Shown here: piece after piece, positions 29,987 to 37,264 of the stretch
Layout: the number at the start of each line of letters is the position of its first letter
How positions within the stretch are numbered: position 1 is the first letter of the stretch
Assembly: GCA_930991035.1 (NCBI GenBank)
Contig: CAKNRV010000004.1
Span: forward strand, 262 to 64,261
Direction of reading: 5' to 3'
DNA length: 64,000 nt
Source: an uncultured Clostridium sp.
GTDB taxonomy: Bacteria; Bacillota; Clostridia; TANB77; CAG-508
Made by a program: the position numbers and the translations under genes
Notes under the pieces: generated by a model
Databases searched by the model: none
What the model was told of the DNA's origin: nothing
Seen by the model: only the letters and a program-made list of their open reading frames with translations

Positions 29987-32815
29987 ATGAATGATAAAAT
30001 AGTAATAAAAGGAGCAAAAGAGCATAACCTTAAAAATATAAATATAGAAATTCCAAGAGATAAATTAGTAGTTATAACAGGACTTTCGGGTTCGGGTAAA
30101 TCTTCTCTTGCATTTGATACACTATATGCAGAAGGACAAAGAAGATATGTAGAAAGTTTATCTGCGTATGCAAGACAATTTTTAGGATTAATGGAGAAAC
30201 CAGATGTAGAATCAATTGACGGGCTTTCTCCAGCAATTTCAATAGACCAAAAAACTACTTCTAAAAATCCACGTTCTACTGTTGGTACTGTTACAGAAAT
30301 TTATGACTATATACGTCTTTTATATGCAAGAATTGGTGTGCCATATTGTCCTAAATGTGGTAAAAAAATTGAAAAGCAAACAATAGATCAAATTATAGAC
30401 AATATATTAGAACTAGAAGAAGGCACAAGGATTCAAGTTTTAGCACCAATAGTAAGAGGAAGAAAAGGTGAGTTTACAAAGCTTTTAGAAAATTTCCAAA
30501 AAGAAGGCTTTGTAAGAGCCAGAATAGATGGAGAGATGGTAGAGCTTTCTGACGATTTACAAATAGACAGAAAGAAAAAGCACAATATAGAGTTAATTGT
30601 AGATAGATTAGTTATAAAAGAAGACATTAGAAGTAGATTAACAGAATCTGTTGAAACAGCTCTAAAGCACGCTAACAACATAGTTATCATAGAAGATGCG
30701 ACACATAAAAATGAGATGTTATTTAGCCAAAACTATGCCTGCCCAGATTGTGGAATTAGTTTTGAAGAGTTAACACCAAGAATGTTCTCATTTAACAATC
30801 CATTTGGGGCTTGCCCAAGTTGTACAGGTATTGGATACTTAATGAAAATGGACGAAGACTTAATTATTCCTGACAAAAACAAAACTCTATATGATGGTGT
30901 AAAAGCCTTTGGCTCTAGTGTTATGAAACGTGGAGACACTATGGCTAAGATGTATTTTGAAAGCATTGCAAAACATTATGGAGTAGAAATAAAAGGTGTA
31001 CCTATAAAGAAATTACCACGTGACTTCCTAGATAAAATCCTATATGGTACAGGTGACGAAGAAATAAATTTTGAATATACATCAGCAGCTGGAACAAGAA
31101 GGTTTACAGCACCATTCGAAGGAGTTTTGCCAACACTAGAAAGACGCCATAATGAGACAAAATCTCAAGGAATGCGTACTTTTTATGAAATGTATATGAG
31201 TGAATCTCCTTGTCCAGAATGTCACGGTGCAAGACTAAAAAAAGAAAGCCTATCTGTAAAAGTAGGAGATAAAAATATAAATGAACTTACAGATATGTCA
31301 ATAAATAAAATAAAGGACTATTTAAATTCTTTAGAGTTAAATGCTAAAGATAGAATGATTGCAGACCAAATATTCAAAGAATTAAATAAAAGATTACAAT
31401 TTTTGATAGATGTTGGACTAGAATATTTAACACTTTCAAGAAGTGCTGGAACATTATCAGGAGGAGAAGCACAACGTATACGTTTGGCAACACAAATTGG
31501 TTCTGGACTTACAGGAGTGTTATACATCTTAGACGAGCCAAGCATAGGACTACATCAAAGGGACAACGACAAACTGCTTGCAACTTTAAAGCACTTGAGA
31601 GATTTAGGAAATACTGTTTTAGTAGTAGAACACGACGAAGATACTATGTATGCAGCAGACCAAATAATTGATATAGGGCCTGGGGCTGGCGTGCACGGAG
31701 GAAACGTTATGGCACAGGGAACAGCAGAAGAAGTAAAACTTGTACCAGACTCTATTACAGGGCAATATTTAAGTGGCAGAAAGAAAATATTAGTTCCAAA
31801 AAAACGTAGAAAATCTAATGGAAAGTCTATTGAAGTAAAAGGAGCTACTGAGCATAACTTAAAAAATATAAATGTAAAATTTCCACTTGGACAATTTATT
31901 TGTGTTACTGGTGTTTCTGGCTCAGGGAAAAGTACATTAGTAAATGAAATATTATACAAAACAATTGCAAGAGACTTGAACGATTCAAATGAAAAACCTG
32001 GAAAATGCAAAGAAGTAAAAGGATTGGAAAACATAGATAAAATAATTAACATCGACCAATCTCCAATAGGAAGAACACCACGTTCTAATCCAGCAACATA
32101 TACAGGTGTATTTGATTTTATACGTGATTTGTTTGCAGGAACAAATGAAGCTAAAATGAGAGGATATGACAAAGGAAGATTTAGCTTTAATGTTCAGGGG
32201 GGAAGATGTGAAGCTTGTAACGGAGATGGAATATTAAAAATAGAAATGCACTTCTTGCCAGATATATATGTACCTTGTGAAGTTTGCAAGGGAAAAAGAT
32301 ACAACAAAGAAACATTAGAGGTAAAATATAAAGGCAAAACTATATCAGATGTATTAGATATGACAGTAGAAGAAGCATTAGAATTCTTTAAAAATATACC
32401 TAGAATAAAAGACAAAATACAAACCCTATATGATGTTGGACTTGGATACATAAAATTAGGACAACCATCTACAACATTATCAGGAGGAGAAGCACAACGT
32501 ATAAAACTTGCAACAGAGCTTTCTAAAAGAGCTACTGGAAAAACATTGTATATCTTAGACGAACCAACAACAGGACTTCATATAGCAGATGTTCACAGAT
32601 TGGTTGATATATTGCAAAGAATAGTTGATACAGGAAACAGCATTATTGTAATTGAACACAACTTAGACTTAATTAAAACGGCAGATTATATCATTGACCT
32701 TGGACCAGAAGGTGGAGATGGTGGAGGAGAAATAGTTGCAGTTGGTTCTCCAGAGCAAATTGTAAAGAATGAAAGAAGCTATACAGGTAAGTTTTTGAAA
32801 AAATATTTGGAATAA
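29987..32815 (+). CDS. uvrA: Excinuclease ABC subunit A
   Basis: Two ABC modules ([18 protein letters not shown]) and zinc-finger CxxC pairs, 942 aa. Confidence 0.97.
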
Positions 32816-32936
32816 TTAATAACTTGTAGGTCCCCATCTTAAGCGGTCCAACATAAAATTAAAAATAACATTGCTTCGCTTGAATAATAAGAGTTAGACT
32901 TGCTCACAAAAAGCAAATCTAACTCTTATGTCCTAA

Positions 32937-33020
32937 CTATTGATTGTTGTTATTGTTATTTTCGTTTTGTTTTCCATTATTTTTTTTGTTATTCTTTTTT
33001 GAATTTTTATTTTCTGCCAT
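32937..33020 (-). CDS. Tiny Asn/Lys-rich peptide, 27 aa (MAENKNSKKNNKKNNGKQNENNNNNNQ)
   Basis: GGAGGTG SD 6 nt before the ATG at 33020. A strong hairpin terminator follows the stop (32888-32931). Confidence 0.45.
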   Translation of the reverse strand: MAENKNSKKNNKKNNGKQNENNNNNNQ

Positions 33021-33211
33021 TAGAAGCACCTCCAATCTAGTAAAATTATGCACAAAAAATATAAAATTATACAGAAATTTATTTTTGAATACGTAATAAT
33101 ATGTACTATTTAAAATAATATTGATTAGCCAAAAATATAACTGTATTTGTAACTAAAAAACGAGAAATAAAGTAAAAGACAAGAAATAAAGTAAAAGACA
33201 AGAAAAATTTC

Positions 33212-33240
33212 TTGACAAGCAAAAGAATTATTGATATTAT
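33212..33240 (+). promoter_or_regulatory. Promoter of leader/LRR unit 1
   Basis: TTGACA-17 nt-TATTAT, preceded by a 2x tandem 20-mer AAGAAATAAAGTAAAAGAC (33163-33203). Confidence 0.65.
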
Positions 33241-33331
33241 TTAGCTGTGCAAAAAAAGAAGTTGGAGAAATTATTTCTTCAATAAGTTTTGTATAACTTG
33301 AGAAGAAAAAGCAAAGGAGAAAAGACAAAAA

Positions 33332-33412
33332 ATGGGAACAAAAAGAATAAGAAAAATGATTAAAACCGTTGGCGTTGTAAGAGAGAGAGAGAGAGAGAGA
33401 GCAATAGATTAG
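33332..33412 (+). CDS. Leader ORF 1 (26 codons as sequenced) containing the (AG)11 tract
   Basis: AAAGGAG SD; MGTKRIRKMIKTVGVVRERERERAID*. A conserved stop-free frame 33403-33531 would be joined if the tract had 10 or 13 units. Confidence 0.45.
   Translation: MGTKRIRKMIKTVGVVRERERERAID
33380..33401 (+). repeat. (AG)11 dinucleotide microsatellite
   Basis: Perfect 22-nt AG tract. Confidence 0.95.
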
Positions 33413-33474
33413 AAAAAGTTGCTCAAATTTGTGATGCTAAAAATGTAAGTGTAAATAATAAAATAGATAAGCAA

Positions 33475-33543
33475 AAAAGGATAGATTATATTGCAAATAG
33501 AAGGAAAGAAAAACTTCTATTTACAGGATAGTCTATCCTTTTT
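33475..33543 (+). terminator. Compound hairpin + T-run (putative attenuator/terminator) upstream of LRR gene 1
   Basis: Outer stem AAAAGGATAGA/TCTATCCTTTT, inner stem AAATAGAAG/CTTCTATTT, then TTTTTG. It ends 37 nt before ATG 33580. Confidence 0.5.
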
Positions 33544-33579
33544 GCGCGTTTAAAAATAAATTTAAGGAGGAAAAAGTCA

Positions 33580-35538
33580 ATGAAAAGAGAAAAGACAAAA
33601 GGAATAACATTACTAGCATTAGTACTAACCATAGTAGTGTTAATAATATTAGCAACAGTAAGTATAAATATGTTGTTTGGAGAAAATGGATTAGTAACAT
33701 CAGCCAATATGGCAGTAAAAATGTCAGAATTCTCAACATTTTTGGAAGAGAAAAATATGTTTGATGCAAATAAAAAAGCAGAAAATGTGGAATATATGCA
33801 AGAAAGTTTAAATGCAGGCAAAACAGTTCTATCCTATAACACACAAGGAAGTGAAGAAACCGATGGGAATATACAAATAGTAATTCCATCAATGGGAGAC
33901 GAATACTTAAACAAATTTGAGATAATAAATGGAGAGCTAATAGTAAATACAGCAGATATTACAGAAATAGAAGTAGCCAGAGCATTAGGAATACAATCAA
34001 ATCCATATGATATAGTAGATGGAGTACTAACATCTTCAAATGAAAATTTAAGCTTGCAAGCACCAAACGGAGTGTTAAAAATCCCAGATAGTGTAACGGT
34101 AATAGGTTCAGGAGCATTTTCAGGGGTTAAAGGATTGACAGAGGTAATAATTCCAGGAACAGTGCAAGAAATACAATCAGATGCATTTTCATATAACACA
34201 GAAATAGAAAAAGTAACAATACAAAATGGAGTAAAAAGCATAGGAGCAAATGCATTTAGAGAATGTAGTAGTTTGCAGGAAATAATAATACCGGATAGTG
34301 TAACAACAATTGGAACGTATGCTTTTTATGCTTGTACAAATTTAAAAAAAGTACAGTTGTCTAATAATCTATCTATATTAAATGCATCTGTTTTTTATGG
34401 GTGCAATAACTTAACCGAAATAAACATACCAACAAAATTAACCCAAATATCTGATAGTGTATTTACTAATTGTACAAAATTAAATAATATAACCATACCA
34501 GCAGGAGTAACAAGTATAGCAAGCAGTGCATTTAGCGATTGTACAAGTTTGACAAATTTAACAATAGACCCATCAAATGAATCATATAAACTAGACGAAA
34601 ATCAATCAGGCATAATATATAAATTAGACGAAATTACTGGAGAACCAACATCATTAATAATGTTAGCAACAATGGCAAATGAAGAAACAGTAAGAATTAG
34701 TGAAGGAATAACAAGCTTAGAAGTAGGAGCACTATCAATATGTACAAATATGAAAACATTGGAATTACCAAGTAGTTTGTCAAGTATCATAGGAAGTACT
34801 TTTGACAGACTTAGATTATTGGGAAATATAAGCTTTCCTTATGGCAATAGCAATTACACAGTAGAAAATGGATATCTATATGGAAATAATGGAACAGAAT
34901 TAATCTATGTGGTTCCGACTAAAACTCAAATAGAAATAAATGAAAAAGTACAAATAATAGGGAGTCATTCAATTCAAAATAGAAATATAACAGAGTTAAA
35001 TATACCAGATAATGTAACAACAATAGAAAATCAAGCATTATATGGTACCAGTAAATTAGCAAAAATACACATAGGAAGTGGAGTATGTAGTTTATCAAGT
35101 CAATTTAAAGAATGGTCGCAAATACCAAATGGACTTGAAATAGAAATAGATGGAGATAATCAAAATTATAAAGTAGAAAATAATTTAATATTAACAAAGG
35201 ATGGAACAGAGGTAGTAACTTATGTGAATAAAGATGTACAGACTCAGGAAATACCAACAAATGTAGTAAAAATTAGTAGTTTTGCTTTTACAGATTTTGA
35301 TATAGCAACAGAAATAATATTGCCAAATACATTAAAAGAAATAGAAAGTAATGCCTTTAGATATTGCGATGGAATAACACAAATAGAAATCCCAAGTAGC
35401 GTAGAAACAATAGGAAATAACGCATTCGATAATTGCTCTAATTTGGAAACAATAAAAATAAACAAAGCAAAAGGCGACCTAGCAGGAGCACCCTGGGGAG
35501 CACCAAAGGGTGATAGAGTGCTTGTGTGGAGTGAGTAG
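33580..35538 (+). CDS. BspA-type leucine-rich-repeat surface protein with pilin-like (class III-like) N-terminal signal, paralog 1
   Basis: N-terminus MKREKTKG|ITLLALVLTIVVLIILA. More than 15 repeats of the IPxSVTxIGxxAFxxCxxL (LRR_5/BspA-like) unit. Confidence 0.85.
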   Translation: MKREKTKGITLLALVLTIVVLIILATVSINMLFGENGLVTSANMAVKMSEFSTFLEEKNMFDANKKAENVEYMQESLNAGKTVLSYNTQGSEETDGNIQIVIPSMGDEYLNKFEIINGELIVNTADITEIEVARALGIQSNPYDIVDGVLTSSNENLSLQAPNGVLKIPDSVTVIGSGAFSGVKGLTEVIIPGTVQEIQSDAFSYNTEIEKVTIQNGVKSIGANAFRECSSLQEIIIPDSVTTIGTYAFYACTNLKKVQLSNNLSILNASVFYGCNNLTEINIPTKLTQISDSVFTNCTKLNNITIPAGVTSIASSAFSDCTSLTNLTIDPSNESYKLDENQSGIIYKLDEITGEPTSLIMLATMANEETVRISEGITSLEVGALSICTNMKTLELPSSLSSIIGSTFDRLRLLGNISFPYGNSNYTVENGYLYGNNGTELIYVVPTKTQIEINEKVQIIGSHSIQNRNITELNIPDNVTTIENQALYGTSKLAKIHIGSGVCSLSSQFKEWSQIPNGLEIEIDGDNQNYKVENNLILTKDGTEVVTYVNKDVQTQEIPTNVVKISSFAFTDFDIATEIILPNTLKEIESNAFRYCDGITQIEIPSSVETIGNNAFDNCSNLETIKINKAKGDLAGAPWGAPKGDRVLVWSE

Positions 35539-35943
35539 AAGATAAAAATTTATTTTTTAAATAGAAAATTTATATCACGAAAAAATCAGAAAATTTGTAA
35601 TATAAAATTTATAGGGTAAAAGGATCAAAAACATCCACAGGTTTCCTGTGGATGTTCAATCGATCTAAAAGATATGTATAAGCCTATGTCGAAAAATGTC
35701 GAACGATTTATGTTGACTATGGCATATAAATATGTTATAGTCAACACATTAATTCAAAAATGTTTTTTGAACTCAAATGAATTGTTTCAAATTTTTTATG
35801 TTTATATCAATTACATATTAAGTTATATCTAAAATATTTTCTCAATGTTAAACATAATCTAAAATATAAAATTTGTATCAAAATAATTTATTTCAAAAGA
35901 TATTTTCAAAATTAAAATATTTTAATCATATGGAGGACGAGTT

Positions 35944-36864
35944 ATGCCAAAAAATAAAATTACAAATACAAAAGAAAATAAAGGAGAAAAACGAAAATTA
36001 CTATCACCAAAATTAGATGTAGTATTTCAAGTCTTATTCGGCGAAAAAGGAAGCGAGAATATTACCAAAAAGATTTTGAAAGCAATATTAAAAGAGCCAA
36101 TCAACAAAGTAGATTTAAGTAGAAATCCAATATTAAGAAGACAAAAGATAAAAGGAAAAATGGGAGTGTTGGATGTAATAGCAGAATTAAACGAAAAAGA
36201 AATGTGCGATATAGAGATGCAAGTAGGAGAGCAAGAAAATATAATAAAGAGGATATTGTATTATTGGGCAAGAGTGTACGGAAGTAATATAAACAAAAAA
36301 GAAGATTATGAAGTATTAAAAAGAACCATTGCAATATTAATCGCAGACTTTGAAATTCCAGGATTGAAGGAACTAGGATATTACACAGATTGGAAGCTAA
36401 TAGAAACAGAGAGCAGAAAAGTAATATTGACAGATACAATCGAGATTGTTATAATAGAGTTGCCAAAGATATATAGGTTAAAAGAAGAAGAGCAAGACAA
36501 AGAATTACTAGACTGGCTATATTTTTTAGAAGATCCAAATTCAAAGAGGGTGATGGATGCAATGAAGGAAAATGAAGGAATAAGGGAAGCAAGAGAAAAA
36601 TTAGAAGAAATGAGCAATGATGTAATAATGCAAAGATTAGCAGAATATAGAGAGTCTGCAATAATTGAAGAAAATGAGGCAAGAAATACAGCGTTACATA
36701 AAGGCATAGCGCAAGGTAGAGAAGAAGGCTTGAAAGAGGGACTTGAACAAGGTGAAAAGAAAAAACAATACGAAATAGCCAAGAAGCTGAAAAATAAAGG
36801 AATAGCAATTGAAGAGATAATGGAAATTACGGATTTACCAAAAGAAGAGGTAGAAAAATTATAA
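35944..36864 (+). CDS. Rpn-family recombination-promoting nuclease / PD-(D/E)XK putative transposase (YhgA-like)
   Basis: LLSPKLDVVFQVLFG..., GVLDVIAEL...CDIEMQV (D...E-x-Q/K nuclease core), C-terminal EEGxxEG repeats plus a GIAIEEIMEITDL helix. This pattern is typical of the PDDEXK_2/Rpn family (from memory). Confidence 0.65.
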   Translation: MPKNKITNTKENKGEKRKLLSPKLDVVFQVLFGEKGSENITKKILKAILKEPINKVDLSRNPILRRQKIKGKMGVLDVIAELNEKEMCDIEMQVGEQENIIKRILYYWARVYGSNINKKEDYEVLKRTIAILIADFEIPGLKELGYYTDWKLIETESRKVILTDTIEIVIIELPKIYRLKEEEQDKELLDWLYFLEDPNSKRVMDAMKENEGIREAREKLEEMSNDVIMQRLAEYRESAIIEENEARNTALHKGIAQGREEGLKEGLEQGEKKKQYEIAKKLKNKGIAIEEIMEITDLPKEEVEKL

Positions 36865-36947
36865 ACAATAGAAGGCAGATACAAATATCAATAATTTTTA
36901 CCATTTAAAAGATATGATAAAAACTGAAAAAATATGCTATGTGCCAC

Positions 36948-36976
36948 TTGACAAAGAAAGTTAGTATTGATAATAT
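36948..36976 (+). promoter_or_regulatory. Promoter of leader/LRR unit 2
   Basis: TTGACA-17 nt-TAATAT. Confidence 0.65.
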
Positions 36977-37015
36977 ATAAATACAAAAGAAAAAGCAAAG
37001 GAGAAAAGGCAAAAA

Positions 37016-37093
37016 ATGGAGACAAAAAAGACAAGAAAAATGGATAAAACCGTTGGAACTGTAAGAGAGAGAGAGAGAGAGAGAGAGCAATAG
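37016..37093 (+). CDS. Leader ORF 2 (25 codons as sequenced) containing the (AG)12 tract
   Basis: AAAGGAG SD; METKKTRKMDKTVGTVREREREREQ*. The conserved stop-free frame 37089-37217 would be joined at 10 or 13 units. Confidence 0.45.
   Translation: METKKTRKMDKTVGTVREREREREQ
37064..37087 (+). repeat. (AG)12 dinucleotide microsatellite
   Basis: Perfect 24-nt AG tract. Confidence 0.95.
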
Positions 37094-37160
37094 ATTAGAA
37101 AAAAGTGCTCTTGTTTGTGATGCAAGAAATGTAAGCATAATAAATAAAATAGATAAGCAT

Positions 37161-37229
37161 AAAAGGGTAGATTATATTGCGAATAGAAGGAAGGAAAAAC
37201 TTCTATTTACAGGATAGTCTATCCTTTTT
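37161..37229 (+). terminator. Compound hairpin + T-run upstream of LRR gene 2
   Basis: AAAAGGGTAGA/TCTATCCTTTT (the A-to-G change keeps a G-U pair), inner AATAGAAG/CTTCTATT, then T-run. Confidence 0.5.
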
Positions 37230-37264
37230 GCGCGTATAAAAATAAATATTAGGAGGAAAAGTTA

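Follow-up and report, generated by a model that had tools for sequence, protein, structure and literature searches.

A 64,000-nucleotide stretch of DNA from an uncultured Clostridium sp. (assembly GCA_930991035.1, contig CAKNRV010000004.1, positions 262 to 64,261; hereafter the window, with positions counted from its first letter) carries two copies of a cassette in which a short leader open reading frame (ORF) with a perfect (AG)n repeat and a terminator-like hairpin precede a surface-protein gene with leucine-rich repeats (LRR). Judged from its sequence, each cassette probably switches a surface adhesin gene ON and OFF stochastically by combining slippage of the repeat, translation of the leader and a terminator. 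A constitutive-looking promoter would drive a transcript opening with the short translated (AG)n leader ORF, and slipped-strand mispairing would alter n by whole units, so that the downstream frame would cycle through three states. With n = 11 or 12, the ribosome would be released at a TAG 3 or 8 nt past the tract, about 60 nt before the hairpin; the hairpin and its U5 run would then form behind RNA polymerase and leave the LRR gene unexpressed or at a basal level (OFF). With n = 10, 13 and so on, the ribosome would translate the 5' arm and the loop and stop at a TAG inside the 3' arm. By occupying the hairpin while the polymerase crosses the U-tract, it would make termination fail, and the gene would be transcribed (ON). 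A preliminary description of this DNA had suggested such a phase-variable, translation-coupled attenuator for the first cassette, and every sequence-level prediction that could be tested turned out as the model requires.

The first cassette lies on the plus strand. Its promoter (33212-33240) consists of a -35 box TTGACA, a 17-nt spacer with TG and a -10 box TATTAT, and with 11 of 12 consensus matches it is as close to consensus as previously described. In consensus scoring with the TG extension it ranked second among the sites in 4.6 kb. Promoter-like sites with at least 9/12 matches were no more frequent than in shuffles, so that only the high score of this promoter counts. This promoter module is also found in front of the leader in L047a. 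In the window, its -35 box is abutted by a tandem repeat with a 19-nt unit, TAAAAGACAAGAAATAAAG (33154-33205, 2.7 copies, 93% matches), which was not present upstream of the same promoter in L047.

A Shine-Dalgarno sequence (SD) AAAGGAG at 33313-33319, a 12-nt spacer and the ATG at 33332 (together 33313-33334) open the leader ORF, and the preliminary description had located both elements correctly. As present in the window, the ORF (33332-33412) encodes 26 amino acids, MGTKRIRKMIKTVGVVRERERERAID, and is in an OFF frame with its stop at 33410-33412. It contains the slippage tract, (AG)11 at 33380-33401, which the repeat scan found to be perfect; tract and stop are thus as claimed before. An AG 14-mer pattern gave 11 overlapping matches at two sites compared with 0.06 expected in the 64-kb window, and the only dinucleotide arrays in the window are the two leader AG tracts. 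Both tracts, (AG)11 and (AG)12, lie inside a leader ORF and have a unit length that is not divisible by 3. The regulated gene is an LRR_5 (BspA-type) surface-protein gene (33564-35538 including its SD AAGGAGG at 33564-33570) that starts with ATG at 33580 and encodes an N-terminal basic stretch and a hydrophobic helix. A promoter and a leader ORF with SD and ATG therefore stand upstream of it, both recognised by their consensus matches.

The sequence behind the tract treats the three frames differently. Twin TAG stops, CAATAGATTAG (33402-33412), close both OFF frames 3 and 8 nt past the tract, and the n = 12 frame ends at CAA-TAG (33405-33407). The third frame would be entered only if n were 10, 13 and so on. 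It continues as S-NRLEKVAQICDAKNVSVNNKIDKQKRIDYIANRRKEKLLFTG (33400-33531) to the TAG at 33529-33531 and is open for 42 further codons with no in-frame ATG, GTG or TTG, a property that the preliminary description had reported and the frame table bore out. Lacking an in-frame start, it can be entered solely through the tract. In shuffles of the A-rich segment, so long an open frame arose by chance in 0.9% of cases for the specified frame and in 2.6% for any frame.

The terminator-like compound hairpin 1 (33471-33545) is built from a core stem GGAUAGAUUAU/AUAGUCUAUCC, an inner stem AAAUAGAAG/CUUCUAUUU and an A-tract/U-tract extension. It comprises about 30 pairs with a predicted folding energy of -35.6 kcal/mol (z = -9.5), and none of 200 shuffles was as stable. 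The T5 run is located at 33539-33543. The preliminary description was right about a hairpin with a T-run whose outer stem ends at 33542, 37 nt before the ATG at 33580, while the size that it gave was too small. It had likewise placed the long-frame TAG in the right vicinity, but the TAG sits inside the extended 3' arm and not upstream of it. According to the fold and the frame table, the short-frame stops lie 58-66 nt upstream of the hairpin. A simple terminator scan missed hairpin 1 due to its loop limit of 8 nt. The distance from the hairpin to the start codon of LRR gene 1 is 34 nt and thus too short for a promoter between the two.

When the whole leader was folded, hairpin 1 was the dominant structure and the SD of the LRR gene remained unpaired, which argues that control in leaders of the window type is not exerted by masking of the ribosome-binding site (RBS). 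RBS masking was rejected for these leaders, as the best duplex reached only -7 to -9 kcal/mol and the SD was free. A promoter-like site in the 5' arm (33464-33492, 9/12 matches) was dismissed as an internal promoter since such sites occur at background frequency and it is absent from the L049-type hairpin. A search of 32800-37400 with the covariance models of Rfam 15 returned only one chance-level microRNA match (E = 0.27).

Nine distinct copies of the window-type hairpin were compared and found to be 94% identical. The 3' arm is invariant in the nine distinct leaders except for one substitution at an unpaired position. Changes in the 5' arm of the core and inner stem are A to G, by which G-U pairs are kept on the plus-strand RNA only.

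The preliminary description had not mentioned a paralogous second cassette 3.7 kb downstream of the first. It has a promoter at 36948-36976 (TTGACA-17-TAATAT with TG), a module that recurs in L031, L047b, L048 and L133a, followed by a leader ORF of 25 amino acids in an OFF frame (37016-37093) with (AG)12 at 37064-37087. Its terminator-like hairpin 2 (37157-37231) has a folding energy of -32.9 kcal/mol and a z score of -8.4. LRR_5 surface-protein gene 2 (37265-39208) is a paralogue of gene 1 with approx. 82% DNA identity. Both leaders of the window are OFF (n = 11 and n = 12), and the third frame is open in each.

The length of the repeat is polymorphic. L045 and L046, from two other samples, aligned to window positions 36384-39358 without a mismatch, the only gap being one of 2 nt in the tract; copy 2 has n = 11 in both compared with 12 in the window, and this is the sole difference over 2.9 kb. 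Copy 1 has n = 11 in four other assemblies, too. At an orthologous DUF951-leader-LRR locus, n is 10 in L048 and 8 in L133, and contig L047 has two leaders with n = 10 and n = 11. Length heterogeneity between strains, on which the preliminary description had made its proposal depend, is therefore present between assemblies (11 versus 12; 8 versus 10). As a separate observation, 5 kb of L040 and L041 correspond to the window and encode a 100% identical LRR protein, with five (L040) and six (L041) differences. The five differences common to both are all found within 37 nt of the leader spacer (33438-33474), and this patch looks like a gene conversion from another leader copy.

The hypothetical in-frame ON peptide was used as a query and led to 28 proteins, all from ENA metagenome assemblies. 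Many of them are complete ORFs of 61-111 amino acids that begin at the leader ATG, and their Arg-Glu (RE) runs correspond to (AG)4, 7, 10 and 13, exactly the in-frame series. P0001-P0005 are full-length in-frame homologues of the ON extension with 75-90% identity, while P0006 and P0018 are spurious ORFs in which an n = 11 leader is read from a different upstream frame. In P0009, P0019, P0020 and P0024, the RE repeat is replaced (..GGIRLLDSNRLEK..) or the segment from the ATG to the tract is missing; they may be locked alleles or contig-end assembly artefacts. A profile search against 1.84 billion representatives resulted in 41 clusters at 50% identity. Searches of the GTDB representative genomes gave no match for a 32-mer and a 21-mer of the hairpin arm and one match for a 20-mer of the tract plus flank, namely L010 (metagenome-assembled genome (MAG) BRZ_FC bin47). 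The near-absence of the family from these representatives is likely caused by assemblies that break at the repeated cassettes; contigs L042 and L043 begin inside the leader. A scan of JGI metagenomes with AGAGAGAGCAATNNATTAGA yielded 20 matches, all of them unrelated chance matches, and provided no unbiased census of n. Family members were hence obtained only from ENA assemblies by the protein route.

The geometry of tract, stops and terminator recurs in most of these leaders, even though their sequences have diverged. All related leaders have an SD, a 10-13-nt spacer and an ATG, the SD being GGAG or, in L049, L133b and L135, the weaker GGAA/GGAAG. Of the 15 tabulated leader entries, 14 have their OFF-frame stops at +3 and +8; the first OFF stop is lost in L031 through a synonymous change of AAT to AAC. 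OFF loci retain open frames of 42-81 codons. Both window copies and all related leaders with this hairpin have the extended frame open, so that its conservation at homologous loci, which the preliminary description had regarded as decisive, was found wherever the hairpin is present. Of the 63 family proteins, 27 terminate in LLF[TA]G, with the stop codon located in the 3' arm as it is in the window. In a further 20, the arm and the U-tract are read in a different frame as ..SLSFL (AGY CTA TCC TTT TTG), which was confirmed on DNA for L049-52; ten of these stop directly after this motif and seven run on to KDKYA and a stop. The arm is apparently read through in P0048 (..SSFLC..KDKYA), too. Altogether, in 48/63 proteins the end of the long frame falls within the conserved terminator arm, directly behind it or further downstream, with two reading frames in use, and the translation of one arm in two frames shows that what is conserved is the nucleic acid of the arm. 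In the distant L010 leader, the terminator is of the classical type and unrelated; its OFF stops lie approx. 30 nt before the stem, and its ON stop abuts the stem. In P0049 (202 amino acids), the leader frame runs through the tract, SNRLEK and the arm (..CLSFLYV..) into a downstream hydrophobic N-terminus (AGITLLTLAITIL..). The origin of the leader may be an extension at the N-terminus of the regulated gene, and the leader-into-protein frame of P0049 may represent this ancestral arrangement.

Repeats in untranslated leaders modulate expression in other species, and n could also act here by altering the folding or spacing of the 5' untranslated region (UTR), with the small ORF being incidental. 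This explanation is very unlikely in view of the SD and ATG in every leader, the post-tract stops in exactly two frames and the open, start-less third frame with its chance expectation of 0.9%. Furthermore, the n values of the ON ORFs differ by multiples of 3, and the predicted fold leaves the AG tract unpaired. The tract lies approx. 140 nt downstream of the -10 element, so that promoter spacing is unaffected.

A subgroup of the family that ends with KD[KR]YA and a stop has no terminator. Such terminator-less leaders were observed in L036 (5001-5230), L133 (10001-10313), L135 (1708-1956) and L136 (268-562). In their ON ORFs, the last ~13 nt (GAUA[GA]AUACGCUU, then TGA) are the leader's best duplex partner for the downstream SD-to-ATG region, with -14 to -16.5 kcal/mol compared with scan-window means of -5 to -7 (standard deviation 3-4). 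The end of the ORF and the RBS are spaced by 169 to 261 nt, and changes are one-sided and wobble-compatible. By this predicted pairing, the leaders look like a translational version in which translation of the ON frame would unmask the RBS. L049 has a terminator plus an anti-SD (ACCUCCUU) inside the ON ORF.

Several observations on the hairpin, on the sampled alleles and on the peptide weigh against the proposed attenuator. Concerning the hairpin, termination is predicted only, and the A/U-rich core stem beside the U-tract has just three G-C pairs. No compensatory double substitutions were detected in the nine copies, in which 0 pairs had changed on both sides; covariation is uninformative for this hairpin because the sequences are too similar. 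The KD[KR]YA subgroup implies that melting of a terminator is not universal in the family. In addition, transcription outruns translation in Bacillus subtilis, and this would weaken ribosome-dependent attenuation if it applied to these Clostridia as well. Translation of the leader might matter with a read-out other than intrinsic termination, be it exposure to Rho or ribonucleases or a function of the hairpin in stability or processing. The A/U-rich core by the U-tract and the phase-variable ORF retained in terminator-less members would fit with this, as would a repeat-dependent switch of Haemophilus influenzae that needs an RNase III-processed 5'-UTR element (PMC12721329). However, the leader contains 8% C with G exceeding C and would be a poor Rho substrate without a good Rho utilisation site; Rho-dependent polarity was judged unlikely from this base composition. 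The hairpin is followed directly by U5 with the A-tract/U-tract symmetry that is typical of intrinsic terminators, and a textbook terminator occupies this position in the unrelated L010 leader. A read-out of this other kind is therefore considered improbable; we infer that the leader is translated, that the hairpin terminates transcription and that ribosome occupancy relieves it.

Concerning the alleles, no ON allele was seen at the two loci of the window itself. Leaders that were sampled independently of the ORF were all OFF (n = 11, 11/12, 11, 8, and L010), and the ON examples are biased since the protein search was able to find ON alleles only. That every allele sampled without bias is OFF would also be expected of a non-functional relic, i.e. 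a decaying small gene with a hitch-hiking microsatellite. Such decay is highly improbable for a multi-copy cassette with at least 41 clusters at 50% identity, in which the repeat stays perfect, OFF loci keep frames of 42-81 codons and n varies between otherwise identical flanks.

Concerning the peptide, the core KT[VI]..V-(RE)n-SN.L.K[ILV]..F.C.AK can still be recognised in remote members and is conserved to a greater extent than the twin stops demand. Its S-N-x-L part is explained by the two OFF-frame stops that are required, the remainder is not. Six variable sites were counted in the hairpin region of six close leaders: five fall on third positions of the ON frame and are synonymous, and the remaining one, at a first position, exchanges Ile and Val conservatively. 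With L134 from the hairpin alignment counted as well, all four variable loop sites were synonymous third positions. The conserved core and the synonymous loop changes suggest that the peptide sequence itself may matter. The long-frame product could even be a functional, phase-variable protein of ~65 amino acids with the hairpin merely as its terminator, and the LRR gene would then be expressed from another start or be regulated by the peptide. The core that flanks the tract in clusters of <50% identity with conservative I/L/V and F/L replacements, the nearly exclusively synonymous changes in the hairpin region of the six close leaders and the weak 9/12 promoter-like site in the 5' arm (33464-33492) all speak for such a protein. 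It is nevertheless unlikely. The peptide had no match in Pfam or NCBIfam, and AlphaFold predicted the long-frame peptide as one featureless helix with a predicted local distance difference test score (pLDDT) of 74 and a predicted template modelling score (pTM) of 0.33. Its N-terminus has 4/10/7 variable sites by codon position and thus no coding-type bias, its middle part is hypervariable in length with 10 to 50 residues, and its C-terminus occurs in three alternative forms. The arm is read as LLFTG and a stop or as DSLSFL and is missing in a third subgroup, which points to conservation at the nucleic-acid level. A loop codon is changed from Glu to Ala and from Glu to Lys in protein-only hits, and the 9/12 site has the background frequency and the absence from the L049-type hairpin mentioned above. 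The attenuator with a translated leader thus remains the preferred reading.

The cassettes are part of an accessory region. The UvrA protein of the window is 96-97% identical to those of two MAGs and 88% to that of Clostridium sp. CAG:273, which on sequence grounds assigns the window to uncultured Clostridia; CAG-273 is filed by GTDB under TANB77/CAG-508 (table in PMC13508870). The cassette was found in none of 80 uvrA-syntenic loci from related species, and synteny therefore yielded no further alleles. The closest genome with flanking DNA, L064 (UvrA 97%), is cassette-free and has the order uvrA, a small minus-strand ORF, cmk and murD. As L064 has no block between uvrA and cmk, the segment at ~33.1-39.25 kb of the window is an accessory insertion; it contains leader 1, LRR1, Rpn, leader 2 and LRR2. 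The two leaders form direct repeats separated by 3.7 kb, through which deletions or duplications could arise. Downstream of uvrA, a small Asn/Lys-rich ORF of 38 amino acids, MHNFTRLEVLLMAENKNSKKNNKKNNGKQNENNNNNNQ, is located on the minus strand (32937-33053), and a recognisable counterpart of its DNA is found at this position in L064.

Between the cassettes, a profile match identified a gene for a recombination-promoting nuclease of the Rpn family (PDDEXK_2) at 35944-36864 on the plus strand. Rpn (PDDEXK_2) genes also adjoin leader cassettes in several unrelated contigs (L133 9044-9934, L135 674-1636 and, divergently, L137-L139). Modules of promoter, leader and downstream gene occur in various combinations; L031, for instance, joins the upstream region of copy 2 to a copy-1-like leader and a different gene. 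The Rpn nuclease is possibly a driver of this module shuffling. A wider proposal would regard all these loci as one large modular family of phase-variable translation-sensor leaders in uncultured CAG-273-like (TANB77) gut Clostridia. The same (AG)n ORF would serve two read-outs, melting of the terminator and, in terminator-less members, unmasking of an RBS that is paired with the last 13 nt of the ON ORF. The peptide core would have a role of its own, e.g. as a nascent chain keeping the ribosome attached to the RNA, and Rpn nucleases would shuffle promoter, leader and adhesin modules. In this full form the proposal is conceivable but rather doubtful.

For the LRR protein, only distant relatives with 23-38% identity were present in GTDB. 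The regulated proteins all begin with a short basic segment, G-I-T-L-[LI]-A-L-V and a hydrophobic helix (window 33580-33700 and 37265-37385; L010 6835-6700 on the minus strand). By eye only, these N-termini resemble pilin (K-G-I-T-L-L-A-L-V plus hydrophobic helix). The Pfam family N_methyl did not match the window protein, and its hit to the L010 protein was not significant (E = 0.19). TANB77 genomes have been reported to possess a conserved pilus cluster and pilin-like proteins (PMC11680825); no pilus cluster was found at 41.6-47.6 kb of the window.

Parts of the proposed mechanism are known from other bacteria. In opa of Neisseria (CTCTT) and lic1 of H. influenzae (CAAT), slipped-strand mispairing near the 5' end shifts the frame and truncates the product. 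There, the repeat is located in the regulated gene itself, whereas it is found here in a separate leader ORF and would act on transcription. The surface protein CwpV of Clostridioides difficile is switched ON and OFF through formation of an intrinsic terminator in the cwpV leader. It resembles the window cassettes in being a phase-variable surface protein of a member of the Clostridia with a leader terminator, but depends on site-specific DNA inversion and involves neither repeat slippage nor translation. In the pyrBI leader and in rph-pyrE of Escherichia coli, a ribosome that translates up to or through an intrinsic terminator suppresses this terminator, and the rph-1 frameshift of E. coli K-12, which stops translation early upstream, lowers downstream expression. 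These two systems differ in that they sense polymerase pausing dependent on uridine triphosphate (UTP) and in that the frameshift is a fixed laboratory mutation and not a reversible repeat.

The preliminary description knew of no combination of repeat slippage and leader attenuation, yet this combination has already been demonstrated for pil1 and pil3 of Streptococcus gallolyticus (PMC3894217). Danne et al. 2014 provided mutational proof that changes of a GCAGA repeat in a leader-peptide gene control both loci (PMC3894217), and the mechanism is ribosome-induced destabilisation of a premature terminator (PMC3894217). There, translation of the OFF peptides ends 39 or 33 nt ahead of the stem-loop, and a stop at least 28 nt upstream suffices for OFF, while the ON peptides stop within or after stem-loops of -18.7 or -28.2 kcal/mol (PMC3894217). 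The window cassettes share with pil1/pil3 a promoter, a leader ORF bearing a repeat whose unit is not a multiple of 3, a stem-loop terminator and a gene for a surface structure. In both systems, short peptides stop ~30-60 nt before the hairpin and long ones in or after it, low versus high expression having been seen in S. gallolyticus, and the repeat number differs between isolates. In terms of sequence, the cassettes accordingly have every feature of the S. gallolyticus system.

The differences are clear as well. The repeat unit is AG with n of about 4-13 here and GCAGA with 13-23 units in S. gallolyticus. Here, a single frame of the three would be ON and two dedicated stops follow directly on the tract, whereas out-of-frame changes in S. 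gallolyticus give the long peptide (two ON frames). The hairpin is stronger here (-33 to -36 versus -19 to -28 kcal/mol), and the downstream gene encodes an LRR_5 protein with an N-terminal hydrophobic helix instead of a sortase pilus operon. The leaders form a sizeable multi-copy family in an uncultured lineage related to Clostridium sp. CAG:273 and are known from sequence alone, while the S. gallolyticus system was shown experimentally. No homology to the pil1/pil3 leader was found, repeat unit and peptide both being different, so that the cassettes belong with it by mechanism and not by descent. They would thus be an unrelated, independently evolved instance of the repeat-in-leader attenuator.

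This type of attenuator was previously known from two loci of one species, and the window cassettes would add a second example. An unrelated instance with another repeat, another peptide and another hairpin would mean that such a design has arisen at least twice and might be widespread. Because the 25-amino-acid OFF ORFs are not seen by gene callers, contigs often break at the repeated cassettes and representative genomes lack them, such switches are invisible to standard annotation. Tract and terminator are only ~140 nt apart, so that single metatranscriptome reads could link n to read-through without cultivation. The regulated BspA-type LRR surface proteins are likely adhesins or antigens, and pilin-like surface proteins of the TANB77/CAG-508 clade have been linked to the response to immunotherapy (PMC11680825). 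Stochastic ON/OFF display of such proteins would matter for any study of the interaction of these bacteria with their host.

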